DNA of 61,591 nucleotides, counting the filler. It is 4 parts of 4 records of this genome, joined end to end, with 100 filler letters (N's around TTAATTAATTAA, not from the genome) between each part and the next. Parts side by side here need not be neighbours in the genome. Positions count along the whole stretch, not along the records: positions 27,413 to 43,349 come from SRR31147125_6880; 3 more parts are not named here. One strand, 5' to 3'. The notes under the pieces are model-generated. The model was given only the letters and a program-made list of their open reading frames with translations. It was not told where the DNA came from and did not search any database. Shown piece after piece: positions 22,098-44,368 of the stretch (the first letter of the stretch is position 1; every line of letters begins with the position of its first letter). The translations under genes and the position numbers were made by a program.

Positions 22098-22197
22098 NNN
22101 NNNNNNNNNNNNNNNNNNNNNNNNNNNNNNNNNNNNNNNNNTTAATTAATTAANNNNNNNNNNNNNNNNNNNNNNNNNNNNNNNNNNNNNNNNNNNN
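22098..22197. other. Artificial contig linker
   Basis: N44 + TTAATTAATTAA (stops in all six frames) + N44, repeated identically three times in the window. Confidence 0.98.
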
Positions 22198-24776: not shown

Positions 24777-27312
24777 ATGAAAAAAAAACTGATTCGTGAT
24801 GCAATACTAAATTGCATTAAAACTAAAACTTGGAAAATTATGCGGTTATTTGCTTTTTTCTGTTAATGTGCTTCTCTCAGGTCTGGGCATCATCCAGCTA
24901 CTCTCAACAAACAAAATTAACGTTGAATTTAAACAGTTCAAAAGTTATTGATGTTTTAGATGAAATTGAGAACAACAGCGAATTTTATTTTCTGTTCAAT
25001 CAACGGTTTGTTGATGTGGATAGAAAAGTTGATATCAATGTAAAGGAAAAAACCATTGGTGTAATTCTGGATGAATTATTTAAGGAAACAAATGTCAATT
25101 ACCTTATTAAAGATCGTCAAATTGTTTTAACTACATTCAATGATGAATTAACTTCTGTCCAACAACCCAGGGAGATTTCAGGTAAGGTAAGCGATTCCGG
25201 AGGATTGCCATTACCGGGAGTTACCGTAATGGTGAAAGGCACAACCACTGGAACTGTAACCGGAGCCGATGGTAGTTATGTGCTTTCAAATATTACAGAA
25301 AATTCAATCCTCCTGTTTTCATTTGTGGGAATGAAATCTCAGGAAATAGTAATTGGAGATCAAACTGTAATTAATGTAATGTTGGAAGAAGAAACAATTG
25401 GTCTCGAAGAAGTAGTGGCCATTGGATATGGAGTTCAAAAGAAAAGTATTGTAACTGGTGCAATTTCGAGTGTTACAAGCGATGATATTCAAAGTTCTTC
25501 TATAACTCGGGCAGAACAAGCGCTTCAGGGAAGAACTGCAGGAGTGCAGGTTATATCAGCATCTGGCTCACCGGGTGCCGAAATGAATGTAAGAATCAGG
25601 GGTTATAGTTCTAACGGAAAGGCTGATCCTCTGTATATTGTTGACGGCGTAAAAACAAACTCTATAAGTTACTTGTCTCCACAAGATATTAGTAATATGG
25701 AGGTTTTAAAAGATGCTGCTTCGTCGGCCATTTATGGTGCTGAAGGAGGAAATGGAGTAATTATCATTACAACGAAATCGGCAAAATCAGGTTTCTCAAC
25801 TATCGATTACGATTTCCAATATACTCTGCAGAATATTGGTAAACTTCCCGGAGTGCTAAATTCTCAGGAATATGCCAATTATTACGGCGAAGCAGGAGCA
25901 TTTTCAATTGATCCGGGCGATGTTGGAAATAATACGGAATGGATGGATGAAATAACTGAACAGGGAATATCTATGCGACATTATGTATCATTCGCCAGTG
26001 GTACCGATAAATCAAATTTTTTATTGTCGCTTTCTTCCCTGGATCAGGACGGTATAATTGTAAAAGATAAAGATTCTTTTAAAAGGTATACTTTCCGGTT
26101 TAATGCCGACAGCCAGCTTAAAGATTGGTTAAAAATTGGAAATAACGCATCATTTGCTTACTACGAAAGAAAAGCAGTATCGGAAAATAATACTGGAAGT
26201 ACCGTTAACTCTGCATTGTTAATGGATCCTACAACACCTACGATTTATACGAGTGGTGTTTTACCAGGGCATGTTCAACAGATATATACCGATGGCAATG
26301 AACCGTTAAAAGATAAAGATGGCAATGTTTATGGCATCTCAAAATACATAAGTAAAAGTCCTGCAAACCCTTTGGTCGGTTTGGAACTTAATAAAGATCA
26401 GACCACCGGATATACTCTTCAGGGAAATATGTTTGCTGAAATTAAACCTGTTGATAATCTTGTTTTTACAACCCGATTTGGATATGAAGTATCGCATCGT
26501 CTTCTTAAAGGTTGGGATCCAACATATTTTTATAATTCAAACAATAATTATAATCTGCAAACGGTTGTCGCACAAAACATGACAGACGGTACTTTCTGGC
26601 AATGGGAAAATTTTGTTAGTTATACCAATACTTTTTCAGAGGATCATAATTTGAATGTTTTATTAGGTATGTCGGCCGAATCGAGGATGACCAGAATTAC
26701 TAATGCAACAGGTGAATTACAATGATTAAAGAAGATGAAAATTATGCAGAATTGAGTTTTATTTCATCTCAATCATCCGACTTTATAGAAGGGCAGAAAT
26801 TTCTTGATACAAAAGCATCCTATTTTGGACGTATTTCATATGATTATCAAAACAAGTACTTGTTTCAGGGTACAATCCGAAGAGATGGAGCAGGAAGTTC
26901 ATTGCTTCCAAAAGAAAACAGATGGGGTATATTTCCTTCATTTTCTGCAGGATGGAATTTTACAGAAGAAGATTTTTTCCCAGGATCATTTGTGAATTTT
27001 GGTAAATTAAGGGCAAGTTGGGGAGAAAACGGAAGCTTGTCAAACCTTTCGAACTATGGGTATAGTTCTGTAATTACTTCCACAAATCTACTTTATCAAT
27101 TGGGTGATGGCAACCTTTATACTGTGGGTGTACCGAACCAGTTAAATAATCCTCAATTAAGGTGGGAAACCAGTGTTCAAACAGATATTGGTATTGATTT
27201 GAGAATGTTTGACAGCCGGGTTAGTTTTACGGTTGACTATTTCAATAAGAAAACTACCGACCTGATTACTCCAAATACCCCTCCACTGGAATCAGGGAAC
27301 TCTGCTTCTGCA
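24777..27312 (+). CDS. SusC/RagA TonB-dependent transporter with N-terminal signalling extension; 3'-truncated, two frameshifts
   Basis: ATG 24777 (MKKKLIRDAI..TWKIMRL), frameshift at a T6 run near 24855 and another near 26715. Motifs LEEVVAIGYG, PLYIVDG, EVLKDAASSAIYG..G.NGVIIITTK, WGIFPSFSAGW and LRWET. Confidence 0.93.
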
Positions 27313-27412
27313 NNNNNNNNNNNNNNNNNNNNNNNNNNNNNNNNNNNNNNNNNNNNTTAATTAATTAANNNNNNNNNNNNNNNNNNNNNNNNNNNNNNNN
27401 NNNNNNNNNNNN
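27313..27412. other. Artificial contig linker
   Basis: N44-TTAATTAATTAA-N44. Confidence 0.98.
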
Positions 27413-27592
27413 AAAAACACCATCACCAGTATCTATAATACTTGCTGATACTGTCATTGAAACAGGTGCTACAGTAATTGTAGTTGTATCTATACTAAAA
27501 CCTTCACCATATAAATCAATATTGTTTGAACTTTCAATAGTTCTTTCTCCTTCTGCTTGTTGTCTAAACATTGTTATTACCGTTCTATTCAT
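27413..27592 (-). CDS. Phage tail-region protein, 3'-truncated
   Basis: Its ATG overlaps the upstream TAA (TAATG at 27590-27594) and the frame is open to the contig edge. Confidence 0.55.
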
Positions 27593-28704
27593 TAATGAGT
27601 ATAATTTTTACCTACATTTCAAAGTAATTTACTGTCAATATATACAAATGAAATTACATCATAAGCAGCATTATTAGCAGTTGTTTCAAAAGTAACAGGT
27701 GTTGAACCGTCACCGTTTTGTATATATGAGTTTGCAGGTAATGTTATTGTATATGATGTATCTGAACAATCAATTACTACAGTTCCATAATCACCATCTT
27801 CAAAATCTGTTACAACAATTGTTGTATTTGTACTAACTGTAAATGTTCAGTTATAACTAATATCAGCATCTAAAGTAAATGTACCACTACTAGCTGGTGC
27901 TGTCATTGTTGTTTTTTTCAAAGCATTATCTGTAGTTGATAAATAACCTGAATGAGTATGATTACCATAGGCTACAGTTGTTGAAGTTGTTCCAAAGTTT
28001 TTGTTAAAAGCTGAATTTTTAGAAAAACTATCTTCTTTATTATCAAATAATCCAGATAATACTAATGGTGTGTAATAGTCAACACCACTAACAGGAACAT
28101 TTGGTTTATTTTTAATAAAAGCATCTGAACTGGTTACAGTTACATTTCAATCACTTTGAACATTAGCTTCTGCATTACTTGGAGCGTGTGTTAATAGTGT
28201 GTGGTCGTAACCTAAATTTCAATCACTTATTCTATTATCAGTTGATAATATATAACCTGAATGTGTATGATTTCCCTGAGCTACTGAACCTGTTGTAGTT
28301 CCAAAGTTTTTGTTAAATGCAGTATTCTTTGTAAAACTATCTTCTTTGTTTTCTACTAAACCAGAAACTGTTATTGGGTCTAAAAAATCAACTCCCTCAA
28401 CTGGAATACTTGGTTTATTAGCAATATAAGTATCTAAACCACTATCTGTAATATTTCAATCTGATTGTACATTTTTTTCTGCATCACTTGGAGCGTGTGC
28501 AACTAAAGTATGGTCATAGGCTAAATTTCAATCCATTAATAAAGGACTAGCTGTTAACAAATATTCTGAATGAGTATGCTCTAATATAGCTGTATTATCT
28601 GTTGAACTTGAAGAAGTAGAACTTATTGTTGAAGTAGTGGTATTTATTCTATTATTCCTGTTAGTTTTAACTACATTTCTTTTATCAATATTTATTGTAC
28701 TCAT
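27592..28704 (-). CDS. Phage tail fibre-like protein, 370 aa with 6 TGA=Trp
   Basis: Absent from the ORF track. Open when TGA (28528, 28456, 28219, 28147, 27847, 27619) is read through. Two NVQSD[W]N...Y/FI.NKP motifs and three HTH repeats. Ends in TAA. Confidence 0.8.
27950..28580 (-). repeat. Diverged 309-bp (103-aa) tandem duplication inside the tail fibre gene
   Basis: HTHS.Y...D[W]NL.YDHTL..HAPS.AE.NVQSD[W]N...KEDSF.KN.AFNKNFGTT occurs twice. Equivalent TGAs are exactly 309 nt apart. Confidence 0.85.
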
Positions 28705-30850
28705 TATTCAAAACTTTTATTAATTTCTAAATTATCTTGTACTACTTCTTGAATGGTAATTGAACTCGAAGCATCCGTAAAATCTTGTACAACTCCTGAT
28801 ATGATAAAATTCTTATCTGGTAAAAATGTTTGATAAGTAATACAACCTAAAATAGAATTTAATCTATTAATATTTGCTGTTAATTCTATTCTTTTATTAG
28901 TGTAATTACTTACAATTGACCTTAATAATAGATTTTCAATATAATCGGTTTTACCCTCTCTTATTCAATCTTTTAAATAGTAGTATGAACCAGAAGTAGA
29001 ATTTAAACCAATTAAAGCAGCTTTTTCTACAGAATTATCTGTTTTACTTGTGCCTTGTAAAGTCGTTATTTCTTCCCCTTTATTTTTATATTTTGCATCC
29101 ATATAACCTACATATTCTACATCACTGGTATCTAATTCTGATCCATCAGAATTAACTATACTAATTACAATATCTTTTATTCTAACATCAATTACAGATT
29201 CTTTTATTGTAGTATAATTTGGTGTAGTTTCTGCTGTTGGGTCAACCATTATATCAAAATCATATATTTCAAACTCTAACATTCCACCTAAAATACCTAC
29301 TGTAGGACTTTCATATAATGGTACTAAATAATCAAATTCTCTTAATTCTAAACTGTCATTATAACCACCATTAGTACCTCATTTTTTAGATTTATTCAAT
29401 TATTATCTATTGAATTAAAACCACTTACTTTAGTACTATTATAGTTTTTAATTGTTCTTAATTCAAAATCTAAATCGAAGCTGTTAGTTAAATCTGTAAC
29501 ATTTTTTCAACCTGTATTAGTTGCATAAGTAGGATAACTAACTGTACTATGTCTTGTATATTGTCTATCAGATATTTTTAATTTACATCTTACTTTACCT
29601 TGATAAATGTTTGAAGTGCTTTCAAGTCCATTTAAGTCTGTAACAGTTCTAAAATACGCCTTCATTTCGACTTTTAATTTAGCATCAGAAGGTATAATGT
29701 AAGGTAATTCTTTTTGTAATTTAAAACTTAAACTTGAAGTTGAAACACCATTAGTATTATATCTTATTATTTTAAAATAACTATCTTCTTCTGTTGTATT
29801 GTCTGTATCACTACCAGTATAACTAGCAAATTTACCATTATTAGAAGCTACTCAATTATCAGAATTATTATATGTAAATTCATCCCATTTATAAGGACTA
29901 TCACCATAAGTAGTAGTAGTTATAATACCTGTAAAATCATCTGCTGAATAATCCAATAAATCAACATCAATATATGGACTGTATTTTATAATTTGTTTAT
30001 TGAAACCTGATACTACATTCATAGTTTGATTTTCAGAAGTAAATTTAATATCCGATAAATCACCTAAATCTAAATTTATAGTTTCAGTTGACACATAAAC
30101 AAAACTCGATGTATATTTTTTGAAAGAAGTATTAGTAGCACCTGCAATACTATGAATATCGGTTATATAGATATTAGCATTATCTTGTACAATTATTGCA
30201 CCGTATGGAATTAATATACTTTCAAGTACTTTCCTTGCTGTTTCTGCATCACCATCTTCATTATATCAGTTTTGATTATTGCAGTATGTTTTGTGAAATA
30301 TTGTTTCATCTAAACCAATGGTAAAATCTACATTAGTTGTAGAAATACCAACATAAATATTTTTATATGGCAGATTTAACTTATTAATTATATTTTGAAT
30401 TACTTCCCATTGTGTTGAAAGTGAAGTGTATTTATTTCCAGAATCATCTAAATAATTAATTCTTCCCAGTAATGCAAAACCATCTGTTCCAGTAAATGAA
30501 ACCGTATAATTTTTATTCTTACTAAATGGTTCTGAATATAATTCTGAATCTAAATAACCACACCAAATTAAACTACTTGCTTTATAAAATTTAATCTGAT
30601 ATTCTAACATATTAGCAGTATGTAAATCTATAAATTTTCTATCTGTTGTTGACAATAAATTTAAATCACAACCTGAACCTTTTACAGGTTCAAATAAATT
30701 TGTAGAAGGATATTCAACTGAAAAAGGTTTATAACTACCTGTAATTTCTTCTGCTGTAATTACTGTTTCTGTATTTTGTCATATTTCAACTATATAAGAA
30801 TCATTTTTAATATCCTTAAATGTGTAGTAATATTTTTTCTGTAATGCCAT
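28704..30850 (-). CDS. Large phage tail (distal/baseplate-type) protein, about 715 aa, TGA=Trp, one homopolymer frameshift
   Basis: Joins ORFs 30266-30655, 29852-30094 and 28965-29282 via TGAs at 30779, 30266, 29852, 29507, 29396, 29379 and 28965, plus one missing A in the run at 29382-29387. TAATG overlaps at both ends. Confidence 0.75.
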
Positions 30851-32715
30851 TATTTAAAATTTTTCATTCTTTTATTTTGATTATTTAGAACACCTACTAA
30901 ACTAGTACCATCTATTCTAAATTGTACTTCACCATTTCCAGTAGTGCCATTATTCAAAGCTTCAAATAGATTAGATTGTTGAGCTGCATTTAATATCATT
31001 TCACCACTATTTACCCTTGCTAAAATATTATCACCAGTAAATGAAGTTCCTGATACTATACCACCAGTTTCAAATTTAGGTATTGCTGCAAAAGCTGCCA
31101 TTACACCACCTACTGCTGTTGCAATAAATGCAGGTGATACAAATGCTGCTGCAAAACCTGTACTTAATGCTGACATTTGCCCAGCTTCAATAGCTGCACC
31201 AATTGCAGAAGCTAAAGACATTGATAATAACTGTAAAGTAGCTTCACCCATTTTACCTACAAAACCTTCTAAACCATCTTCTGCTAAACCTAAACCATCT
31301 AATACATTACCACCTAATGATTGAAAAGCTTGTGATACTGCACCACTTATAGCATTAGCTTTTTCTTGTAATTCTTGTGCTGCTGCATCATTAATTTTTA
31401 CATTAACTTCTATAGCTTGTTCTGAATCTTCAATTAACTTATTTAGTTTATCAGTTTCAAGTTTTAGTTTAACTGGTATTTCTGGTACTTCACCTTGACC
31501 AATACCTTCTAAAGGTTTGAAGTCTTTATAAGAATCTTCAATTACTTTTCTTTCAGCTTTTAATAATGATAGATTTCTAAGCTGTAAACTATTTACCCTT
31601 CTTTGTGTTGCTGATTGTTGGTCTAACCTTTTAGCTTCTATTTCAGAAACTTTAGCTATTGCTTCTGCTTCTGCATTTAAGTTTTCAGTATTTGACCTTG
31701 CATAAGTATTTTTTTCTACTTGAATATCTCGCCTTGCAGCAGCTATTTCTAAATCAGTTTTGAGTAATTTATCTTCTAATACTTGTGCCTGTTTTAATAA
31801 CTTTATTGCTTCTGCTGGTGAATCTAATTCAGCTTCCCTTGATTGTAATTTTAATCTAGCTATTTCAGCTTCTACTTTTGCTCTATTTTTTAACTGTTCA
31901 CGTTCTTTTAAATCGGTTTGATAAATCTTTTCAGATAATGCTGCTGATTGTTTCATTTCAGCATTATTCTTTTTAAATCATTTGTTAGTACTTTTTAACT
32001 GTTCATCTGTTAAACCTGTACTAGCTTGTAACATAGCTTTACCCATATTACCAGCAGCATCTTTAATTTCATTTTCTGCTTTAGCTATTTCTGCTGATTG
32101 GTCACTTCATATATTTTTAATAGAAGCACCAATTAATTTAAATGAACTTACACCTATATCTTTTAATGATGTAAAAAGATTACCTAAAGCTTCAATTCTG
32201 GTAACTATATTATCTTTTATTAGTTTTCAAAGATTTTGAATTGCTTCTTTTGGATTTTCAAAAGCAGCTATTATACCTTCACCTAAATCTGCTAATAAGT
32301 CTATAGCATTATCAAATAATACTGTAATAGGCATCCAGATTTTTCTAAATTTTGCTGCACCTTCTTCACTACTTGTAAATGCTGCAACTAAAGCACCAAA
32401 AGCAACAACTACAGCACCTATACCAGTACTTAAAAGAACCTTCTTAAATCCTTTTAAACCTGTAGTAGCAGAAGTTATAGCAGCTTGTGAAGCTTTAAAT
32501 AATGCAGGTATTGAAGATATACCACCACTAGTAATAGCAGAACCTACATCAGTAATAGCTGAACTAGTACCTTTAAAAGCACTTTTCATATCTGTATTAT
32601 GCTTTTTCTGCTTGTTCTTAAATTTACCTACTTGTGTATTTGCCCTGTTTAGTTTAGCAGTTAAATCATCTATTTTTGCAGTTAATTGTGTTTCTAAATT
32701 AAATTGTTTTGACAT
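30850..32715 (-). CDS. Tail tape measure protein, 621 aa, 3 TGA=Trp
   Basis: ORFs 32227-32715 and 30850-31956 are in the same frame, separated only by TGAs at 32227, 32107 and 31978. Ala/Lys-rich helical sequence with STGIGAVVVAFG and FETGGIVSG...ARVNSGEMILN. Confidence 0.88.
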
Positions 32716-33329
32716 TATTTTATTTTGTTTATAAGTCTAGTAGCATTTTCTAAACTCATTATATTTTTAGTATCGTTTTCTGTATCATCTACTTTATTAT
32801 CTCAACTAAATTGAATAACATCAGTAGGTTTAATTTTCTTTTTCATATTCACCTGATAAATTGAGTAAACTATCATTCTGGTTTGTTCATATCCAGTTTT
32901 AATATTTTCATCTAATGCTGTTACAACATCATTTAATTCATCTCAATCCATTTCATTTTTAAAGTATTCAGGTGTAATAGAAGTATTGGTAACTACCAAA
33001 CCAAATAATTTAGATAAGTGTACTGTTACTTTTTCTTTTTTTACTGTATCTGGTGTATTATTTGGAAATAATAATTTTGTAATAATTCCTATTATTTGTA
33101 TAAATAGTTCAGGGTTTTCATCTAAAATATCATCTATGAAAGATTTGTAGGAATAAGTAAAGTTTTCATTATTATATTGAAGTGAATAAAATGCTAACTT
33201 CATAATATCATCTTTACTATTAGCTTCTGTAATTGCTTTATTTTCTTCTTTTTCTCATAAAAGCATTACACCAAAACCCATTTTAATTTTATATTCTTTA
33301 CCTTCTATTTTTATTTTTTCTGATTTCAT
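32715..33329 (-). CDS. Tail assembly chaperone (gpG/gpT-like), 204 aa as assembled, 3 TGA=Trp
   Basis: Lies between tail tube and TMP. Starts MKSEKIKIEGKEYKIKMGFG, contains YEQTR and KKIKPTDVIQFS[W]D. TGAs at 33255, 32943 and 32802; ends in TAA overlapping the TMP ATG. Confidence 0.7.
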
Positions 33330-33357
33330 TTTTCTTTCTATTTATATGTAAAAAAAT

Positions 33358-33389
33358 AAACCCTATAATTAAGGTACTATAGGGTTTTT
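33358..33389 (-). terminator. Hairpin after the tail tube gene
   Basis: AAACCCTATA...TATAGGGTTT inverted repeat followed by a T-rich run on the minus strand. Confidence 0.6.
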
Positions 33390-33393
33390 ATCT

Positions 33394-33861
33394 TTATACT
33401 GTAACAACTGTTCTTACTAATTGTCCTGTTCCTTCAAATGAAGCAGAATAAGTAGCTAATTCACCAGCATTACCTGTATTTACTGAAACACTAGTAACAT
33501 TAACTGTTCCTGTATAATATACATTTCCAGCAGTTGTTATATCTAATGTATTAGGTGTAGTATTTGCATTTTTACTAGCTATACCTATAGCTACTTCTAA
33601 AGCAGTACCATTTAATAAAGCTTCATCAATTGTAACATATCCATTAGTTTCTGTAAAATCTATTAAACCACCTGTAGAAATGTTTCATTCTATTCTACCT
33701 GAAATACTTTCTTTATAATCTCCACTTGATTTACTTGTTATATCTAATTGTTCTCTTGAAATACTAAGTTCACAAGATGATGCACGTGCTAATACATCAT
33801 ATGTTGTACCACTATCATCAGTAGTAAATATTATTAAATCTTGTCCTTTTAAAATACTCAT
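33394..33861 (-). CDS. Major tail (tube) protein, 155 aa, 1 TGA=Trp
   Basis: Absent from the ORF track. MSILKGQDL...SCELSISREQLDITSKSSGDYKESISGRIE[W]NISTGGL...ATYSASFEGTGQL. TGA at 33685 sits at the usual Trp of the G-x-x-x-W-S-I-S motif. Confidence 0.88.
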
Positions 33862-33876
33862 TTTTTATATTGTTTT

Positions 33877-34278
33877 TTATTTGTTTAAATACTTACAGCT
33901 AAATTTTAAGCTGTTGTTATATAGTTCAAAATTTGAATCAAATCATTCACTATAATTATCGAAACTAATACCTACTATTTCCATAGTATCAGTTTCTATT
34001 TCTTTGTTTTCTAGTGATATTCTTATGATTTCACTATAATCTGTTATTTCTGTATATTTTTTAGCTAAAATTGCTATTGTAAATGAAGCTTCATTATATA
34101 TAAACATATCTTTAGTATATACAGGTGAAATAGAATCTACATCTACTACTAAATATGGTGGGCTAACTGTTTTATCAGTTGTATATACCACTACATTATA
34201 TATTTTATCTCCTATTTGTTCACTAACATCTGTATCATCTAATAGATGTTGTTTTATTGTTTTTCCTAAATCGAACAT
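33877..34278 (-). CDS. Tail terminator/completion protein, 133 aa, 1 TGA=Trp
   Basis: ORF 33943-34278 extends through TGA to TAA 33877. Position upstream of the tube gene; L.D..V...IG.KIY and PPY.V pattern. Confidence 0.7.
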
Positions 34279-34742
34279 TATTTATTTGCTTTTCTGTATA
34301 AACTATCAACTTCTTTTTCAATAGATTGAATAATGTAATTATGATATTCACTTTCAGATTTTTCAGAACCTTTTTCTATACTTGTACTTCAAAATTTAAT
34401 ACCTTTTACTTTGCCTGTATTCTTTTTAACACCTGCTTTAGTAATGTAACTTCTTTGCTTAGTACCATTTTCTAAAAAGTGTGCGTGTGAACCTTTATAT
34501 TTACCAGTTTTTCTAGCTCCAATAATTAAAACATCATCACCATTTTGTTTAGTTGCTTTTTCACCTAATGACCTATATAATCTGCCTTTTCTTTGATGTA
34601 ATCAAACTTTTTCTTTTGCTGATTTTAAGATAGGTTTTGAAATTAATCTTAATGCTTTTCTAATAATTTTGGTTCTAATTTTATCATCTAATCCTTTTAA
34701 TACTCTTTGAATATTTTCAACATTATTAACTTTTAAATCCAT
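34278..34742 (-). CDS. HK97 gp10-like tail component, 154 aa, 2 TGA=Trp
   Basis: Absent from the ORF track. IIRKALR...KPI...AK, G.LYRS, HAHFLENGT and KF[W]. TGAs at 34602 and 34389. TAATG overlaps at both ends. Confidence 0.8.
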
Positions 34743-35044
34743 TATACTGTAAGTGCTAAATCAATTAATATATCTTCATTAAAACCACCTACAGATTGAA
34801 TATGTATAATTTCATAAAATTCATCTTTGATTTTAACTTTCATAGTAGGCTCTAAATCTTTTCTATTCCTAATTTTAATTGTAATAGATTTTGTATTTAA
34901 TAATTGATAGGATTGTACAACATTAGAACCTGATTTATATAATATCTGAATGTTGATAGGTTTGTAGTATTCATATTCTACATCATTATCTTCACCTGTT
35001 CTTTTATATAAATGTGCTTTGTATTTTACTTTTCCGCTTATCAT
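34742..35044 (-). CDS. Head closure (head-tail adaptor) protein
   Basis: 100 aa with MISGK start and IKIRNRKDLEPTMKVKIKDEFYEIIHI pattern. Expected position after the connector. Confidence 0.75.
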   Translation of the reverse strand: MISGKVKYKAHLYKRTGEDNDVEYEYYKPINIQILYKSGSNVVQSYQLLNTKSITIKIRNRKDLEPTMKVKIKDEFYEIIHIQSVGGFNEDILIDLALTV

Positions 35045-35547
35045 TACATTAAATTTAATAACCGTAAAACGGTTTTATTATCAGTTAAACCTATACTATA
35101 ATTACTTCTATCAGTATCATACATATCAGCAGCAGTAATTATAACTGCTTGCATTATATTTCTAGGTGTATTTGTCCCAGCAGTATAAACTATGTTAACT
35201 GTTGAAGCTGTTAAAATTGGTGTGTTTAGGATTAAGTGTGTAGAATTTTGTTTTCTTATAATTCGGTAATCTGTATAATCAATATCATCTACTGTAAAAG
35301 AAGTAATACTACTAAATCCTGAATGTTCTAATATTATTCTACTTCCTGTAAAATCATAATAATTAAACTCTACAGAAGTTGTAACTACAAAACCGTTTAT
35401 TCTTGAATCTACTCAATCTATAGAAGCACTTATTAATTTTTCTAAGTGTGTTGTATCTACTAAATCATCATCTAAATTTAGATGTGTAATTAGAGTATCT
35501 ACACATATATCTGTATATGTTTTACTTAAAATTACTGTTTCGTTCAT
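35044..35547 (-). CDS. Head-tail connector (HK97 gp6-like), 167 aa, 1 TGA=Trp
   Basis: Absent from the ORF track. THLNLDDD...LEKLISASID[W]VDSRIN...YTAG..PRNIMQAVII.AADMYD.DR. TGA at 35413. Confidence 0.8.
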
Positions 35548-35565
35548 AACTTATTGAGTTTAATT

Positions 35566-35598
35566 AAATACCTGCTGCACTAAGGCAAACAGGTATTT
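35566..35598 (-). terminator. Hairpin after the capsid gene
   Basis: AAATACCTG...CAGGTATTT inverted repeat in the capsid-connector gap. Confidence 0.55.
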
Positions 35599-35624
35599 AT
35601 GTTTATATAAATAGAAAAATATTA

Positions 35625-36710
35625 TTATACTGCTGCAATATTTGCATATCTTGAAGCTGCTGCATTTCTTAATTTTACATCTACATCACGTCTTACAGTA
35701 ATCTGTACTTGACCTTTAGAAGCTAATGTATATGGATCAAAAATTACTTCATATTCAGAACCAAATTCACCTACAGCAATTTGTGACATATCACAAGCTA
35801 CAATATTAGTTGCAGTTGAAGGTGCAAATAATTGAGAATAGAAAATATCTGTTCCATCATATAATTGACCTATACCTTCATTAGAAATTTTGTTAGCTAA
35901 AAATAAACCTGAACCAGTATCTACTTTTACACCTTTTGCTGTTCAAAACTGTGCAAACGGCATCAATAATGATGCAGGTGCATCTACTGCTTTTAACAGG
36001 GTGTTCATATTATCATAGGTATATGATGTTAAACCTGTAACTTCTGTTGCACCAGCTAAGGTTACATCAAAAATTCTTTTAGTAGTTTCTCTATCAACTG
36101 ATTTTACCATTTCATAAATAAATGCTTGTAAAGTTGCTTCATTACCTACTTGCATAATTGATTTATCAATTGTTTCAGTAATTGTACTTTGATTTTCAGG
36201 TGATAAAGTTACAACTGCTACAGCATTTGAATTTGCGTTTGCTGTTCCGTATGCAGTTTTACCTGCTGTCATTGCCGTCATATAAGGCAATTTTAAAGAT
36301 GTTTTCAAATTAGGAAAAACCTGAACACCCATCTTTTTATAAAGTGGTTCATATCCTACTACTGAAATATCACCAGCTACAGCTTCATTATCAATATTTG
36401 TGCTTAATGTTACTGCTCTTACTTTAAAATCTTGAATAGTATCATTACTTCTTTTGATTAAACTTTTAAAATCTTCCATTTTGTTTTCTATTTTTTGAAT
36501 GTTGTTAATTTGTTTTGTGTTTAAAGCATCTTGTGCTTTTCTTTCATTAATTCTTTTTTCTAATTCCTTTTGTTCAGCATCTAAATTTTTCCAGTTTTCT
36601 AATTCTTGTTCATTCATTGAACGTTCTTTAGTTTCTGAATCATTAATAATTGCTTCCATAGCATCTATCTTAGTTGCTCTTTCTGAAATAAGTTCATTTA
36701 ATTTTTTCAT
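35625..36710 (-). CDS. HK97-fold major capsid protein, 361 aa, 1 TGA=Trp
   Basis: Coiled-coil delta-domain-like N-terminus. Read-through of TGA 35943 adds ...DMSQIAVGEFG..EVIFDPYTLASKGQVQITV...DV, a typical HK97 capsid C-terminus. Ends TAA TAA. Confidence 0.88.
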
Positions 36711-37312
36711 TATAAACTTTCTTTTAATTCTTTAATATATTCTGTTTTCTCTTTGTTAGCTTCTTTAATCTGTTGTAGTTTTTCTACTTTTTCATTCTTT
36801 TCAAATTCATCTGCTGCACTTCTGATACTTACATCTGTATTAGTATAAGCACCATCACCAACTATTGAAATATCATACAATCCACTAACTTTATCTACTA
36901 TGTGAAGCAAATCACCGTTTTCATCTCTTTTAAATGTTGAATCACCACGTTTGATTGTATATTTGAAACTAGATTCAAACAAATCACCACGTTCAACCAT
37001 TTCTAAAGTATCTCTATGCAGTTGGGTTTTACCCATCCTAACAGAATACTTTAAACCTTTTTCATCTACTGCTAATTGTAAAGTTCCTGATTGACTTCTA
37101 CCTAATAATTTTTCAGGATTATGTTCTACTACTGCTTTTACATTTAGACTTTCATTTCTTAAAACTTCATCAAATGCACCCTCTTTTATTACTTCATAAA
37201 ATAGTTTACCATCTTCAAAAATTAATTTACTTCTTTGGTTGAAAATACTAGCATAACCATCTAATCAGGTTTCATCTGTATTTTCAATACTTCTTACTAA
37301 AATATTACTCAT
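36710..37312 (-). CDS. HK97-family prohead protease, 200 aa, 1 TGA=Trp
   Basis: [W]LDGYASIFNQRS, FYEVIKEGAF, EHN...LLGRSQSGTLQL.VDEKGL, RGDL..SSF and YDISIV...AY.NT. TGA at 37265. Confidence 0.92.
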
Positions 37313-38507
37313 TACTTTCTATACTTTTAATATTTTTTTTATCTTCTAATGTTACATATTGTGCCTGTAAATAGTGTTTATCTGCATCATCTGTATCAAT
37401 ACTTTTAAATCCTAATCTTACTACTGCTTCATTATGTGTACATAATCCATTTGTTACCAATTTTTGATAAGCATTAGTTTTAGTTGTTAAATCTGCATCT
37501 AGTAAAACGGAATAATCAAAATCTATATAAAAACCCTGTTCAATTTCTGAACTGGTTAATAGTTTCATTTCAATCTCGTTTTTATAACTGGCTAAAATGT
37601 TATTTAAGGTGAAGGTTTTAAATTCTAAGGTTTGGTTTTCTATACTTTGAGTAGTTTCATAACTCATAAGGAATGAAGGAACACCAAAAGCTGAAATAAT
37701 TTCACTATTGGTAAACTTCAAAGTATTAATTATATCTGCATCAATTAACTTATAATTTAGTGCATCAATTTTAAATCCTGGTGGCAACTTAATAACCTTA
37801 CCAGCATTTGAAGCACCAGCATTATCTATTTCAAAATTTTCTGAATATTCTTTTAATGCTTTTACTTGGTCTAAACTACCTATTGTAGAAGATAATACTA
37901 AAGGTGACATAGCATTATTTTCATAAAAATTCTCAATAGTTGAAGCTGCTTTTTGTCTTATTCCAGCTTCAAATGTTAAAGATTTTAATGGTGAAACACC
38001 TAAAAAATTATCTTGAATTGCAGTTTTGAAATGTAATATTTCATCACCGTTTATTGTTTCTTTAGTATTTCAAGAAACAAATGGATTTAATGAATTATCT
38101 ATTGAATAATATACTGAATCACCACTTAATGCTAAACTAACTATAGAATTATATGGATATGGTAAAAGTTTTGAAATATTACCTTTATTATCATAAATTA
38201 TTCTGATAAATCCATTACCATTAGTTACTCTATCTCTTTCTGTTATTTTTCTGCCTGAATCACTACTAATATAATTTGTAAACTTTCGATTGAATAATTT
38301 ACTTATTATATGGTTCTTAATTATTTGCCCTTTGTCGTTTCTGACAATTACAGGTAATCTACTTACATTTTCTACTAATATTCTAGTACAGGTTTGAATA
38401 GTACTAACTGTTTCAGAATCTACTGTATTAGAATTATAAGGTAGATTAATATTTACACCTAATGATATTAGTTTATTTATTATTTTATCTGTGCTTAATC
38501 ATCCCAT
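37305..38507 (-). CDS. HK97-family portal protein, 400 aa, 2 TGA=Trp
   Basis: TCTRILVENVSRLP, GNGFIRI, EILHFK......GVSPL, NAGKV..L..G and EI..AFGVP..L. TGAs at codon 3 (38499) and 38070. Confidence 0.92.
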
Positions 38508-38515
38508 TTTATTTA

Positions 38516-40191
38516 TTATTTATTGTTATTATTTTCAAATTCAAAATTGTATTTATCATTATTTAAATACATACCTACAGCCATACCTAAAGCTACTACA
38601 CCATCAACTGAATCTTTACTTTTATTTTTCATTATTTTGATATTACCATTACCATCTTGATATAAAACTACATTTCTAAACATTCATCTTAATACAGGAT
38701 TTTTACCTAGTATAATTGATTGGTTCATTATAAACTGTTCTAAATATTTTAATGGCATATTAAAGAAAGATGAAAGTTGTGGACATTTCACACATTTTAA
38801 ACCTAAATTTAATTCAAGTTTTGGTATCAATTGTGAATTATTTCAAGCATCATAACCTAATGATACAGCTTCAAAATTTTCTGTATAAAATTTTATTCTT
38901 TCAGCTATATAATCATAATCAATAGTAGGTCTTTCAGTTTGTGTAATAAAACCTTTACTTATTCAATCGGTTAAATCTAAACCATTCATTCTAACTATAC
39001 TATTATCATTTTGTGGTAAAAAGTGTTCTACTTTTACATATAACATACCATCTTTTTCAATTAATACTGCTAGTGCTGCAAAATCTTTAGTAGCAGCTAA
39101 ATCTAAACCTAAATATATATTTGAACCTTTTAAAGATTCAATATCAAAATCTTTGAAGCATAATTTATAATCATCATCTTCTATTCAGGTTGTTAAACTA
39201 TCCTTAAAAAGTTTAGATTTTTTACGATAAATGAATTTAAATCTGCTTTTGTTTTCTTACTTTTTTCATAATCTTCTACTAAAGTTTCAAGTTCAATAAT
39301 TTCACCAATAGTAGGATTTGATTTTATTCAGTTTTCAGGCTGTTCTATTTCATCTTCACTATCTAAAGTATATAGTGCATAAAATGTGTTATCCTGTTCC
39401 AATTCATTATTTAATATCTGTTTTGCTGCTTCTATTTGGCTGTAAAAAGGATAATCTTTATTAAAACCTGCTGTACTTATTTCAAGTAATAAAGGTTCTT
39501 TTCTGGCTTTCATTCCAGAATCCATAATATTAAATAAATCTCTGTTCTTGTGTGCGTGTGATTCATCAATAATTGCAAAACTTGGATTTAAACCATCTAA
39601 ACTATCTGCTTTACCTGCTAAAGGTTTTGCTATATTATTTTTATTAAATCGTAAATGATAAGCTAATACATCTACTCTTTTTTTAAGTGCTGGTGAAAAT
39701 GAAATAATAGCTTTCAAATATTTTAAAGCTTGTGAAGCTTGTTTACCTGTTGTAGCTAAAAAATATACTTCTGCATCATCTGCACCCTTCATTAATTCAT
39801 ACAGGCTAAAAATCGCTGTTAATGTTGTTTTAGCGTTCTTTCTAGCCATTCAGATTAAACCGTATTTCCTTAATCTTTTACCATTTTCACGAACTAAACC
39901 GTAAATACATTTAACTATTCAAGCTTGAAATTGTAGTGGTATAAATCTTTGATTTTTTTCTAGGAACACATAAAAGAAAAATTTATAAACTTCTGCTACT
40001 CGGTTTTCATCATAAGTATATTTATTTCTTAATTCCTGTTCCCTTATTACTGCTTTTTTAATTCATTCAGAAGCTACTATTTTACCAGTAAGTATATCTG
40101 ATTCATATTTATCAGCAGCATCAAAACAATCTTTTATATATTGGGTTTTAGCTTCTTTTATTTTTTCTGTTTGCTGCTTGTTTTTTTTCAT
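38516..40191 (-). CDS. terL: Terminase large subunit, about 558 aa, 8 TGA=Trp, one homopolymer frameshift
   Basis: Walker A ARKNAKT, Walker B IIDESH, ISTAG, nuclease GLDLAATKD and VDGVVAL. One extra base is needed in the run at 39206-39210. TGAs at 40063, 39919, 39850, 39328, 39185, 38963, 38843 and 38684. Confidence 0.95.
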
Positions 40192-40201
40192 TTTCTATAT
40201 A

Positions 40202-40519
40202 TTAAAAATTATCATCTAATTCTTCAATATCATCTATTTTTAAAGTTGCTCTATCAAAAGGTGATAATGCTAGTTTTTTTGAAATTTGTAATAATGTTTT
40301 TGTAGAAGATTCAAGTACTGATAATGATATATTTTTTTGATAATATGGATTATTACCTTCTTTGGCTATATTCATTACAGAACCACGTTTTTTAATATCC
40401 CTTCTTGCATCTGCAATTAGTTTTAAATTAAAAATAAATTCCTCAATTAAATATTCATCGACATCATTATAAATTCCTTTTTCTTCTAAATATTCTGTTA
40501 ACTTTTTCTTACTAATCAT
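40202..40519 (-). CDS. terS: Terminase small subunit (P27-like)
   Basis: 105 aa immediately upstream of terL. L.E.GI...VD..LIE, I...G.V, KN..L and L.LSP..RA pattern. Contains no Trp. Confidence 0.8.
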   Translation of the reverse strand: MISKKKLTEYLEEKGIYNDVDEYLIEEFIFNLKLIADARRDIKKRGSVMNIAKEGNNPYYQKNISLSVLESSTKTLLQISKKLALSPFDRATLKIDDIEELDDNF

Positions 40520-40658
40520 TTAATACTGCTTTTTTGAGATTTGTTTTACAATCTTCTAACTTTATATATGCTTTAATAATTTTATTAGCATATTTTATTC
40601 TATTGATTTTATCATCAATTTTATTAAGTGTTTTTTCTTCTAATTCAAATTTTTCCAT
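40512..40658 (-). CDS. Small hypothetical phage protein, 48 aa
   Basis: ATG GAA AAA TTT...TAG fills the HNH-terS gap and overlaps the terS start. Confidence 0.45.
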   Translation of the reverse strand: MEKFELEEKTLNKIDDKINRIKYANKIIKAYIKLEDCKTNLKKAVLND

Positions 40659-40671
40659 TTCTATTTATATT

Positions 40672-41019
40672 TTATTCGCTTTCCATTTGAAGCTGTAGCT
40701 TTTTACCTTCATCTAATTTTGCATATCTGCTATTATCCCTTCTTGTAATGTATCTATGATGATATGTGCAAAGTGGTTGTAAATTGTTTAAATCAAAGAA
40801 TTTTGATTTGTCTTTTTCTGCTGGTATTTTGTGGTTAACTTCTGTTGCTGGTGTTAATTTGTTTTCCAGTAAACAAAATTCACATAATGGATTTTCAGAT
40901 AATGCTATTTTTCTAATCTCTTTTCATTCTCTAGTATTGTATCATCCTAATCTGCTTAATTCCGTTCATCCACGTTTTTCTTTTTCGGTTTTCATTCACC
41001 AAAAATTATTTTTACTCAT
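40672..41019 (-). CDS. Terminase-associated HNH endonuclease (HK97 gp74-like), 115 aa, 4 TGA=Trp
   Basis: Absent from the ORF track. YNTRE[W]KEIR....ENPLCEFC...PATEVNHKIP...FFDLNNLQPLCTYHH. TGAs at 40996, 40966, 40942 and 40924. Confidence 0.9.
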
Positions 41020-41330
41020 TTCTGTTTTTGTTTAAAGTATTTCCTGAATAGGATTTTTAGTATAAAATTGTTTCAATCAGGGACAAAAAATTTATGTATT
41101 TACTGACATTCTGAACATAAATTCTTTAATTCAATATAAATTTTCAGGGTGTTTAGTCGGGTTTGAATATCGTTTAGACCTACCTATCTAAAAAGTTTAC
41201 ACGTAAAAAAAACGCCTACCCACGATGGTATATATCCTTTAACCTATTTTCTATCATTTACCCCCTTAACATCTGTTTATAATTGTATATTTAACCGTAA
41301 ATCATAATTCAATTAACATTTACCAAAATA

Positions 41331-42200
41331 ATGAAGGAAATAAGTGAATTAACTATTGTAAGCAACTCTAAAAAGGAACAATCAATATATAAAGGTGAAC
41401 CACTTTTAGAATATATTGAACTGCTTGCAAATAAAATTCAACCTGTAAACGAAAATAATTTTAAAGGTTCTTATACATCAAATGCTGTTAAACAATTTCA
41501 AAATCGTTACAACAACATTGATAAAAGAGGACTAAAAAAATACCTTGATAAAGATTCAATTGAAGTTTTACATCCAGTTATTGAAACAATGGGTTATGAT
41601 ATTGAAAAATTCTGGTATCTATCAATTTTTGTAATGGATTATAGTACTGGTTACTGTCTTAATGGTATGAAACTAGAATCAAATCCTAAAACAGAAATTG
41701 AACATCTTTTAAACGGAATAGAAGAAAATACAATATCATTTGATAATGAAACCAAATTAGCAGAATTTAAAAAACCTATTCAATTATCACTCGATATAAA
41801 AGGTAAAAAGAATATTGAGTTAAAAAGTTCTACTGCAATTGTATTCTTATATGCAGCTTTAAAAGAGGTAATGAATAATGAAAATGCTTTTATTAATTCA
41901 TATGATTCACGTTTAATATCTACAGAAACTATATCTACATCAAACTCTTTATTGATTGCTTATTTTGCTAAATTATTTCAAACATTTTTTGAATTAAAAC
42001 CACCAAAAATTAAAAGAAAACCTAAAGATTCTGATTTAAACTACAGTAAATTACTGCTTATTTCAAGAATGATTTACATTTTAAGAATAACAAATAATGA
42101 AACTTATTGGAACTCTCAGGAAATTTTAAAATCAATTCTGAATCAAAACAAAGAACTTAATTTCTCTGATTCTATTAATGGTTATTATTTGAATATTTAA
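41331..42200 (+). CDS. Hypothetical protein, 289 aa, divergent from the late operon
   Basis: Long ORF in AT-rich DNA, intact in code 11. Both Trp codons are TGG; stop is TAA. Confidence 0.7.
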   Translation: MKEISELTIVSNSKKEQSIYKGEPLLEYIELLANKIQPVNENNFKGSYTSNAVKQFQNRYNNIDKRGLKKYLDKDSIEVLHPVIETMGYDIEKFWYLSIFVMDYSTGYCLNGMKLESNPKTEIEHLLNGIEENTISFDNETKLAEFKKPIQLSLDIKGKKNIELKSSTAIVFLYAALKEVMNNENAFINSYDSRLISTETISTSNSLLIAYFAKLFQTFFELKPPKIKRKPKDSDLNYSKLLLISRMIYILRITNNETYWNSQEILKSILNQNKELNFSDSINGYYLNI

Positions 42201-42305
42201 TTAAAGTAAATGCTTTTATAGTACTTTTTCCTTTACCCTTATTTGCTTCAAGTAGCTTCATATTTGTAGTGTCAATAATGACATATAATTTTTAAAATTA
42301 ATAAT

Positions 42306-43157
42306 ATGAAAGTATCTGAAAAAGAACAAAAAAGAATTAAAGAAATTCACACAATTACAGAAGCAAAAGTAAAAACAATTGAAGGTTATAAACCTCAATC
42401 AACTTTCCTAGTTTCTGACTATTCGCAGTTTGAATTTACAGAAGCAAACAGAACAGTAGCACCTAATAAGGACTTATTAGAAAACCTAAAAACAAACGGT
42501 CAATTAATGCCTGTATTAGTAAGAAAAAATGAAACTGGTAAACTGGTTATAATTGACGGTCAACATAGAACATTTCATCTTAAAGAATTAGGTTTACCTA
42601 TAATCTGTCTTGAACTAAGAACTGATTTTAAAAAAGATAATTATGAAGCTGTAAAAGCTACAAATATTATTGATAAGAGTTTTACAAATAAAGATTTGTA
42701 TTTACATTACATCAAAAAAGGTAATACCAATTTTAAAAACTTTATTCAGGCTAAACAAGATTATAAATTTTTGTCTGAAACAATTCTGTATTATTATGCT
42801 ACAGGCAAAAAAGAAGGTCTTAAAGAAATGTATGCTACTGAAACATTAGAATTTGACTTAACAGATAACCAAAAATCAAAATTAAAAACTCTAAATATTT
42901 TAGTTGAAGCTGTTGTAGATTCTCGTGATAACCAACCTTATAATAGTTATTTTTACAGACCTGAAATTTTCAAAACTTTAAGAACCTTCATTAATGAAAC
43001 ACCCGATTATGATTTTAAAACTTTGGAAACTATTTTAAAATCAGAAGGTCATTCTTTTACAAAGAAAACTACTGTAGAAGATGTAACAAATTTATATAAA
43101 AGACAGGCAATTCTTAATGAAGAAAAAGCTAAACAAATTGCTGAAAAAGCAGCTTAA
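42306..43157 (+). CDS. ParB/Srx-like N-terminal domain protein
   Basis: DYSQF....ANR, L...GQL.PVLV and IIDGQHR motif. No Trp; stop is TAA. Confidence 0.75.
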   Translation: MKVSEKEQKRIKEIHTITEAKVKTIEGYKPQSTFLVSDYSQFEFTEANRTVAPNKDLLENLKTNGQLMPVLVRKNETGKLVIIDGQHRTFHLKELGLPIICLELRTDFKKDNYEAVKATNIIDKSFTNKDLYLHYIKKGNTNFKNFIQAKQDYKFLSETILYYYATGKKEGLKEMYATETLEFDLTDNQKSKLKTLNILVEAVVDSRDNQPYNSYFYRPEIFKTLRTFINETPDYDFKTLETILKSEGHSFTKKTTVEDVTNLYKRQAILNEEKAKQIAEKAA

Positions 43158-43182
43158 TTATAATACCACCATAACTAGGAAT

Positions 43183-43214
43183 AGGGTGTAGATTCATTTT
43201 CTACACCCTTTTTT
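43183..43214 (+). terminator. Rho-independent terminator
   Basis: AGGGTGTAGA-loop-TCTACACCCT followed by a T run, just after the ParB-like gene. Confidence 0.85.
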
Positions 43215-43349
43215 ATTGCTTATTATTTAGCTTGTCAGTCCCTATTTATTATTGCTTTACTGGTAATGATTAATAATTTATTACCTGATTTTGTTTCTAC
43301 TTTCTGATAGTTGAAATTTTCATCCTGTCAACTATTCAGGAATACTTTT

Positions 43350-43449
43350 NNNNNNNNNNNNNNNNNNNNNNNNNNNNNNNNNNNNNNNNNNNNTTAATTA
43401 ATTAANNNNNNNNNNNNNNNNNNNNNNNNNNNNNNNNNNNNNNNNNNNN
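43350..43449. other. Artificial contig linker
   Basis: N44-TTAATTAATTAA-N44. Confidence 0.98.
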
Positions 43450-44368
43450 CAGGTAAGTCACCTGAGTGACCATGGAAATCGTTAGATGGATTCATAAAAA
43501 TTATTGGACAATCTATCTCGTTATGATAGGCTGAGCTTGAAATACATGCCAATATTTTATCGCCCCCTTTATATGAATTGCTGCTTACCCCACCACACGA
43601 AGGGGCGGCAGCCTTTATACGAGAATCGGTGGCTGTAAGTACTGTAATATTCCCACCCATTGAGTGTCCGTAAATGCCAATTCTTTCTTTATCAACCACT
43701 TTTTGCTGCTCGAGAAAGGTTATGGCCCGGCGTGCTGCCAGTGTCCACATAAACCACATGGTATTCCTTGGTGAGACAACTTCATCTAAGGTGCAGAATT
43801 TGGGTTCGGTATGCCACGAATCATTCCCTTCGTATCTGGATGGCGCATGATAGGCATCGATAGCCCCCCAATCAGTTGTAACACGATATAATGAGTCTTC
43901 AACCATACCCTCCAAAAAAGCCTTTACATTTTCCCTTTCAGCAGAATATTGCGACGACCTGATTCTACCAGCCCATGCCAGAGAAATAGTAGCATATCCA
44001 TGCTTCGCATTTTGCATAATATGTCGATAGTCGGCACGTTGTCCACCACCATGAGTTTGTATAAGCGCGGGGATATTTCTGGCACCTTTGGGATAGCCAT
44101 ATACCGCTGCCATCATCGCTTTTTCCCCTTTGAATACCCCCACACGATATCGCAAAACCTGCAAAACTACGCCGTCTTCTTCCCATTCTTTTAGAATTTC
44201 CACCTCAAGCGGCTCCTTCCTTGGGTCATAATCTTTCCACAATTCATTATGATTTTTTGGCACTTCTGCTTCCGAGGTATAGGGTGCGAAAGTATTTGTC
44301 AATTTAGAACTTTGAGCAAATACGAACTGCGTAAAAAGAAGTAGCGTAAATAAAGTTATATATTTCAT
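43450..44368 (-). CDS. Secreted alpha/beta hydrolase (dienelactone hydrolase/esterase-like), 3'-truncated
   Basis: Signal peptide, HGGGQ, ARRAITFL and nucleophile motif GHSMGG. Confidence 0.8.

Follow-up and report, generated by a model that had tools for sequence, protein, structure and literature searches.

TGA as a predicted tryptophan codon in the lytic genes of a temperate phage lineage from standard-code Prolixibacteraceae

How can a phage operon be intact when nearly all of its genes are interrupted by TGA, and in what kind of cell would such an operon be expressed? The question is raised by a 61,591-nucleotide stretch of joined DNA (the window), in which the phage contig at positions 27413 to 43349 carries on its minus strand a late operon which a preliminary description, made from the letters alone, took to be of the HK97 type and to read TGA as tryptophan. 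The explanation that fits best, and that we hold to be very probable, is that the contig covers part of the genome of a small temperate siphovirus of the HK97 type, from a lineage that integrates into standard-code Prolixibacteraceae. In this lineage TGA is the main Trp codon of the lytic genes, and the difference in code would form a lock between lysis and lysogeny.

Translation in code 4 resolves the minus strand between 41019 and 27592 into 17 closely packed genes. These 17 open reading frames (ORFs; 27592-41019, 4,324 codons) hold 39 TGA and 6 TGG and neither TAA nor TAG in frame, against the approximately 40 and 6 estimated by hand before, and correction of homopolymer errors, described below, brings the counts to 40 TGA and 6 TGG. 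ORFs of at least 100 amino acids (aa) cover 45% of the contig in code 11 (13 ORFs) and 92% in code 4 (19 ORFs), which agrees with the earlier description of an operon that is fragmented in code 11 and contiguous with TGA read through. All eight TAATG overlaps it had listed (36710, 35044, 34742, 34278, 32715, 30850, 28704 and 27592) were recovered at those positions, and the motifs it had picked as typical Trp sites (PENWIKSNP, GYDAWN, NPVLRWM, TDWISKG, REWKEIR, GRIEWNIS, VQSDWN and FSWD) are all present in the translations. It had also given TAA as the stop of every TGA-containing gene. In the uncorrected window TAA closes 16 of the 17 ORFs and TAG the remaining one; after correction TAA terminates every listed ORF.

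The residue represented by TGA was read from standard-code homologs. In the large terminase (TerL), P0028, a terminase of 555 aa from Marinilabilia salmonicolor annotated by NCBI in the standard code, has W at all 8 TGA columns, and at 3 of them W is shared by 8 of 8 comparison homologs. P0028 is identical to the TerL of L008 (IMGVR_UViG_2770939452_000001), a syntenic sister phage with the same gene order from HNH/terminase to tail and with 68-70% identity in TerL, 62-64% in the portal and 51-63% in the capsid; it differs in its 34% G+C (GC) content, in having no in-frame TGA, with 10 TGG in TerL, and in ending 5 of its 21 ORFs with TGA as a genuine stop. Opposite the L008 orthologs (14 genes), the window TGAs (n = 34) fall on W in 17 cases, on F or Y in 6, and on G and C in one case each. 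Inversely, the TGG-Trp codons of L008 in these orthologs (n = 30) meet TGA in the window 17 times and TGG twice. In the two relatives introduced below, 14 of 29 TGAs (prophage of isolate A06) and 12 of 25 (prophage in a metagenome-assembled genome, MAG) stand opposite W of L008. A reading of TGA as glycine (code 25) or as some other residue gains nothing specific from these alignments beyond the single G and the single C, and with W prevailing overall and in every TerL column it is highly improbable. The earlier claim that TGA stands for Trp, and neither for Gly nor for decay, is confirmed.

The features of the phage contig, with coordinates on the window as given and with the evidence used for each, are the following.

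27313..27412, no strand: artificial contig spacer, N44-TTAATTAATTAA-N44
27413..43349, no strand: separate phage contig, 15,937 bp, ~27% GC (adjoining contigs ~40% GC)
27413..27592, minus: gene cut by the contig end, N-terminal 60 codons (code-4 translation)
27592..28704, minus: repeat-containing tail-fibre-like protein, 370 aa, 6 TGA, 0 TGG (no Pfam or PHROG match)
28704..30850, minus: tail protein of the distal tail/baseplate type, 715 aa corrected, 7 TGA (matches a single 711-aa MAG gene)
30850..32715, minus: tape measure protein, 621 aa, 3 TGA, 1 TGG (position and orthology to genes of the relatives)
32715..33329, minus: tail assembly chaperones G (101 aa) and T (94 aa), a single fused ORF in the window, two genes after correction
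33394..33861, minus: tail tube protein, 1 TGA (PF06199, 1.9e-09)
33877..34278, minus: protein of the head-tail joining region, 133 aa, 1 TGA, family not assigned (comparison with relatives)
34278..34742, minus: HK97 gp10-like tail component, 2 TGA (PF04883)
34742..35044, minus: head completion protein, zero Trp codons (PF05521)
35044..35547, minus: protein of the head-tail connector region, 167 aa, 1 TGA (comparison with relatives)
35625..36710, minus: major capsid protein, 1 TGA, 1 TGG (weak PF05065 match, 0.0027; 51-58% identity to capsids of the relatives)
36710..37312, minus: prohead serine protease S78, 1 TGA, opposite W in L008 (Pfam, 1.9e-33)
37305..38507, minus: portal protein, 2 TGA (PF04860, 3.4e-56)
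38516..40191, minus: large terminase TerL, 558 aa corrected, 8 TGA, 0 TGG (Pfam ATPase and nuclease domains)
40202..40519, minus: small terminase, zero Trp codons (Terminase_4)
40672..41019, minus: HNH endonuclease, 115 aa, 4 TGA, all opposite W in L008, and 1 TGG (Pfam)
41331..42200, plus: opposite-strand gene, 289 aa, 0 TGA, 2 TGG (code-4 ORF)
42306..43157, plus: opposite-strand ParB-like protein, 283 aa, zero Trp codons (phrog_12305, 7.4e-13)

The Pfam matches for portal, S78 protease, TerL, Terminase_4, HNH, tail tube, gp10-like component and head completion protein uphold the proposed HK97-type late operon, and profile searches confirm the predicted HK97-type head and packaging module, made up of portal, S78 protease, HK97-fold capsid and TerS/TerL beside HNH. 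The PF05065 match of the capsid lies under the Pfam cut-off (17.6 vs 24.2 bits), but the relatives' capsid genes are orthologs of this gene. For the 289-aa opposite-strand protein no Pfam or PHROG match was obtained, and the ESM Atlas gave only unnamed clusters from Bacteroidota and phages. As a separate observation on the codons themselves, 25 of the 39 in-frame TGAs of the window are followed by A, where 40% is expected from all codon first bases, as are 29 of 59 in the A06 prophage, vs 39% expected.

The window consists of at least four contigs concatenated with identical spacers, N44-TTAATTAATTAA-N44, at 22098-22197, 27313-27412 and 43350-43449, which are artificial and contain stops in all six frames. 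Position 27413 is consequently the first base of a contig, not an internal phage boundary, and because artificial spacers lie at both ends, the operon has no physical link to flanking host genes in the window. Any reading across the spacers is likewise artificial, as in the ORFs 26722-27360 and 43394-44368, which extend into the N runs. An independent assembly was available from a public run in which 99% of the words sampled from 33400-43349 recur and which is probably the source of the stretch. Its 28,785-nt contig spans the whole phage contig with zero substitutions, adds 12.8 kb of phage sequence that is unseen in the window (~7.5 kb past 43349 and ~5.4 kb past 27413), and has extra homopolymer bases behind four positions: T behind 29381, TT behind 33035, A behind 39205 and C behind 41260.

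These four sites account for the broken genes. As given, the window has TerL split (39193-40191 and 38516-39046), one tail gene split (29348-30850 and 28704-29399, ORFs of 500 and 231 aa), and the G and T chaperone genes fused (32715-33329). With the four homopolymer corrections, made by script, TerL is restored to a single gene (558 aa, 8 TGA), as is the tail gene (715 aa, 7 TGA), and G (101 aa) and T (94 aa) come apart as they do in the relatives; the HNH counts in the corrected total come from the uncorrected tally. The frame breaks in TerL, the 715-aa tail gene and the G/T pair are assembly errors only. They had been the one point in favour of regarding the TGAs as nonsense mutations in a decaying, defective prophage, and they are absent from the independent assembly. 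The TGAs moreover occupy Trp positions that are conserved across three elements with only ~70% identity between them, the ORF lengths agree with those of the standard-code sister, and premature TAA or TAG codons, equal numbers of which would in the preliminary description have refuted the recoding, number zero against 39-40 TGA. Decay is scarcely credible as an explanation.

Close relatives of the portal and TerL exist in public assemblies at 55-78% identity, where several are filed as fragments of the sizes expected with TGA read as stop; TerL is recorded in pieces of 173 and 101 aa. Since code 11 fragments these prophages in this way, they are easily missed or called pseudogenes. A profile search of genome contigs with a portal alignment found relatives where a single-portal query found none. 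Two with ~70% identity in portal and TerL were read: a 42.4-kb contig of a Prolixibacteraceae MAG (G002) and scaffold_45 of the isolate Gaoshiqia sediminis A06 (G001), with 7 and 8 TGAs in TerL, respectively. TerL relatives (E<=1e-30) occur in 10 of 335 Prolixibacteraceae species genomes, and in-gene TGAs only in A06 and the MAG. TerL fragments with the same breakpoints are found on an uncultured Draconibacterium contig of 5.29 Mb and on contigs of 98.7 and 81.5 kb.

Both readable relatives are integrated. The MAG contig passes directly from 22 kb at ~43% GC, with TGA-free and TGG-rich genes, into 20 kb of phage DNA at ~28% GC, the junction being an aldo/keto reductase gene that is truncated there; next to it lies the gene of a large serine recombinase of 581 aa. 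On the A06 contig, homology to a related complete chromosome stops at 1597, in the 3' end of a 3-methyladenine glycosylase gene, and restarts at 25782, the two flanks lying ~70 bases apart in the related chromosome. As both host flanks are thus located, the A06 prophage is 1598-25781 of its contig, or 24,184 bp, and one of its ends carries a serine recombinase of 532 aa. In a 95%-identical relative of A06, which lacks a TerL match, one contig continues from the left flank into the region of the site. The gene for RF2, prfB, is present in both lysogen genomes above the curated cut-off. The relatives of the window phage are serine-recombinase prophages inside standard-code Prolixibacteraceae, and we infer that the window phage itself has the same kind of host.

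The contigs adjoining the phage contig read cleanly in code 11 and encode typical Bacteroidota proteins, namely an ECF sigma factor, a FecR anti-sigma factor, a SusC-type TonB receptor and glycoside hydrolases; TGA is the stop of 5 of their 26 long ORFs. A DegT aminotransferase on one of them has its best match, at 66% identity, in Prolixibacteraceae, a value that is uninformative for host taxonomy.

Were the phage instead one of a code-4 organism such as a Mollicute, mis-binned with Bacteroidota, there would be no conflict of codes at all. Its GC content of 27% vs ~40% in the adjoining contigs, the lack of a host junction in the window, and cultured-phage matches that at best reach 27-36% identity to phages infecting Bacillota would all suit such an origin. 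Against it stand the 70%-identical relatives integrated in standard-code Prolixibacteraceae, with both flanks verified once, the sister clade, which is standard-code in Marinilabilia salmonicolor, and the avoidance of TGA by lysogeny genes, for which a code-4 host would give no need. Phages of Mycoplasma and Spiroplasma resemble the elements studied here in reading TGA as Trp in a very AT-rich genome, but there the host shares the code, whereas the hosts of this lineage have RF2, TGA stops and tRNA-Trp(CCA) only. With recombinases free of TGA and relatives in Prolixibacteraceae, the elements do not behave as phages of a Mollicute-type code-4 host, and such an origin is very improbable.

The proposed lock is read from the distribution of TGA over the genes. 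Genes of the lysogeny type avoid TGA: the two recombinases, the two MAG genes after the recombinase (one of them with a helix-turn-helix (HTH) domain) and the 289-aa gene of the window together have 0 TGA and 12 TGG, whereas the rest of the gene set of the three elements has 130 TGA and 37 TGG (Fisher p = 6e-8 vs the TGA-free set, with the class of 'lysogeny genes' drawn after inspection of the data). No recombinase gene of the window phage is visible in the 15.9 kb. In the preferred explanation, the 15.9 kb is part of a phage of at least 24-29 kb whose lytic genes (HNH, terminase, head, tail and fibre) use TGA as the main Trp codon and TAA as stop. Members of the lineage integrate into Prolixibacteraceae chromosomes through a large serine recombinase, in hosts with the standard code, with RF2 and with TGA as the stop of some host genes. 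Recombinase, HTH regulator and opposite-strand module are free of TGA, as a lysogen must express them under the host code. The lytic genes, being full of TGA, would under host decoding be truncated, and the code difference would in this manner separate lysogeny from lysis at the level of translation, as a lock.

Outside the lysogeny-type genes the use of TGA is also uneven. The block from head to tape measure in A06 has 24 TGA and 0 TGG, vs 13 TGA and 10 TGG in its fibre module (G001:C109:2267-7837), and the MAG tail-fibre/host-range gene (G002:C35:39654-41789) has 3 TGA and 9 TGG, while the head genes have nearly all TGA. This suggests that the fibre modules were recently imported from standard-code phages.

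Several points weigh against the explanation preferred here. The post hoc class is one of them, as the window contributes just 2 TGG to it (p = 0.025 alone), and another is the MAG ParB-like opposite-strand gene, which carries 1 TGA. The phage contig has no host junction, its host being taken from the relatives and the accompanying Bacteroidota contigs, and inducibility of the prophages, synthesis of the proteins and the lock are predictions from sequence. As to decoding, the tRNA scan of A06 scored 150 of 256 first-look candidates, a 100-nt tRNA-like match in A06 is untyped, and only 15.9 kb of the 28.8-kb contig are visible, so that a suppressor tRNA could sit in the unseen 12.8 kb.

If TGA is decoded as Trp in a standard-code cell, a decoder has to be found, and the search for one was negative. 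No tRNA was detected by ARAGORN or Rfam in the window, the complete A06 prophage, the MAG element or the elements L007-L009, and an Rfam tRNA search of the A06 prophage at E<=1 gave no match; relaxed ARAGORN runs (introns, mitochondrial models) gave scattered and inconsistent matches inside genes only. The A06 genome has, with 150 of 256 first-look candidates scored, 49 Rfam tRNA matches, among which are one tRNA-Trp(CCA) and none with a UCA anticodon, and the A06 and MAG genomes each hold one Trp anticodon stem-loop, reading CCA. The D-stem of the host tRNA-Trp has a C11-G24 pair, from which no inference is drawn. The untyped tRNA-like sequence of A06 (L141; G001:C90:47767-47866, minus strand) scores 31.3 bits with the Rfam tRNA model and has 34 extra bases in the region of anticodon and variable loop; it was left untyped by ARAGORN, and a UCA anticodon loop was not seen in it.

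Other kinds of decoder were looked for as well. The three elements have no conserved intergenic RNA or block in common except for a 30-nt palindrome, 93% identical between A06 (G001:C109:19720-19760) and the MAG (G002:C35:27113-27252), which is the sole intergenic sequence shared and looks like a terminator or operator. At BLAST level they have no TGA-free protein in common, and a crude regex motif scan of the elements gave no signature of a CDA-type deaminase or a tryptophanyl-tRNA synthetase (TrpRS). The strings GGQ and SPF occur only in unrelated proteins (recombinase, small terminase, tail fibre and a short ORF).

As no UCA tRNA is detectable in the elements or in the isolate genome, a trans-acting change to host translation is favoured. 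Such a change at induction, exerted on tRNA-Trp(CCA) or on RF2, is the likeliest solution, with an undetected non-canonical suppressor RNA as the main alternative. In its full form, that UGA is decoded as Trp with no UCA tRNA gene in phage or host and that induction acts on the host machinery, the proposal is tentative. Candidates for the switch are a wobble-base change of the single tRNA-Trp(CCA), or inactivation of RF2. In kinetoplastid mitochondria, tRNA-Trp(CCA) undergoes such a wobble-base change. If the proposal is true, a 24-kb prophage would carry a compact non-tRNA switch of the genetic code, open to dissection in culture with a Bacteroidota lysogen and its phage-free relative.

Decoding could also be classical, by an ordinary or odd opal suppressor tRNA(UCA) that sits in the 12.8 kb beyond the visible 15.9 kb of the 28.8-kb contig, or that has a form tRNA finders miss. 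A phage-borne tRNA(UCA) is frequent among recoded phages of standard-code hosts without being obligatory. In the preprint of Borges et al. (10.1101/2021.08.26.457843), TGA suppressors were detected in just 35% of code-4 phages and non-canonical tRNAs were suspected, which would make a missed tRNA less surprising. The exactly bounded A06 prophage yielded no tRNA under either ARAGORN setting or with Rfam, and the three elements share no intergenic block beyond the palindrome; on balance a classical suppressor is unlikely. TGA-to-Trp recoded gut phages for which no suppressor tRNA was detected resemble the present elements in their code-4 reading and in that no decoder gene was found. With suppressors found in only 35% the decoder gap is therefore a known one; what the present case adds is a prophage with exact boundaries whose host is in culture.

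Among recoded phages, the closest counterparts in kind are the Garnet (Prevotella) and Topaz (Oscillospiraceae) prophages, which Borges et al. (10.1101/2021.08.26.457843) describe as TAG-recoded and 24,371 and 23,706 bp long, with an integrase lacking the recoded stop, a pattern analogous to the TGA-free genes here and read as a lysis-lysogeny lock for TAG prophages. All are small temperate phages in standard-code hosts, the A06 relative being 24,184 bp vs 24,371 and 23,706 bp, with genes nearly all fragmented in code 11, an integrase without recoded stop and a GC content below that of the host. In Garnet and Topaz, TAG is reassigned to Gln, and they come from gut bacteria and metagenomes, whereas here it is TGA that is read as Trp, the recombinases are large serine recombinases, the hosts are Prolixibacteraceae (one of them a cultured isolate) and no suppressor tRNA was found. 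The same preprint proposes that recoding proceeds from low GC through loss of TGA stops, and the GC content of 27-29% in the recoded elements vs 34% in the standard-code sister fits this low-GC-first route.

No relative of at least 60% identity was found in the cultured-phage collection, the best among the matches listed having 29.7% (portal) and 35.6% (TerL) identity; the nearest cultured phages, at 27-36%, are mostly phages of Bacillota. A scan of metagenome contigs gave no relative above 35% identity among the matches listed. A quick TerL tree places the sequences of the window, A06 and the MAG in a supported clade of 16 rows (99), within which all rows known to be standard-code (L008/P0028, L007 and L009) form one supported subclade of 8 (99); the recoded rows lie outside it and are not resolved as one group. 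The literature found on stop-codon recoding and prophages comprises the Borges preprint and work on crAss-like phages and phages associated with the candidate phyla radiation (CPR). A cold-seep sediment study predicts recoded viruses with just 3 TGA events, and the Gaoshiqia literature among the matches listed is, judged by titles and the opening of abstracts, on taxonomy or ecology. No literature joining Prolixibacteraceae, prophage and stop codon was found. An undescribed recoded lineage, as supposed earlier, is plausible. Recoded phages are as a kind already known; new are the host group, the recoding of TGA instead of TAG in elements proven to be integrated, and the availability in culture of a lysogen for which nature provides controls.

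For the recoded phages without a suppressor tRNA, which are the majority, it is still unsolved by what means a standard-code cell is brought to translate a stop codon as an amino acid, and to our knowledge nearly all known examples are from uncultured gut metagenomes. The complete 24.2-kb TGA-recoded prophage in the cultured Gaoshiqia sediminis A06 is a resource for this problem, together with the 95%-identical relative that has no TerL match and whose contig reaches the attachment-site region, and with the ~70%-identical sister phage that is still standard-code. There is evidence, too, that the habit of recoding reaches past guts, into the Prolixibacteraceae.

Two further genes of the A06 prophage were recorded.

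L090:2623-3390 = G001:C109:15623-16390, minus: NUMOD1/I-HmuI-like gene
L090:6761-7444 = G001:C109:19761-20444: D12-class N6-adenine DNA methyltransferase, 5 TGA, 1 TGG

The first, of the homing-endonuclease type, encodes 255 aa between TerL and portal with 4 TGA and 0 TGG and is found in the A06 prophage only. In the host contigs of the window, two overlapping same-strand pairs of long ORFs (58771-60228/59936-61534 and 15700-16083/15957-16991) may be single genes split by homopolymer indels like those of the phage contig.

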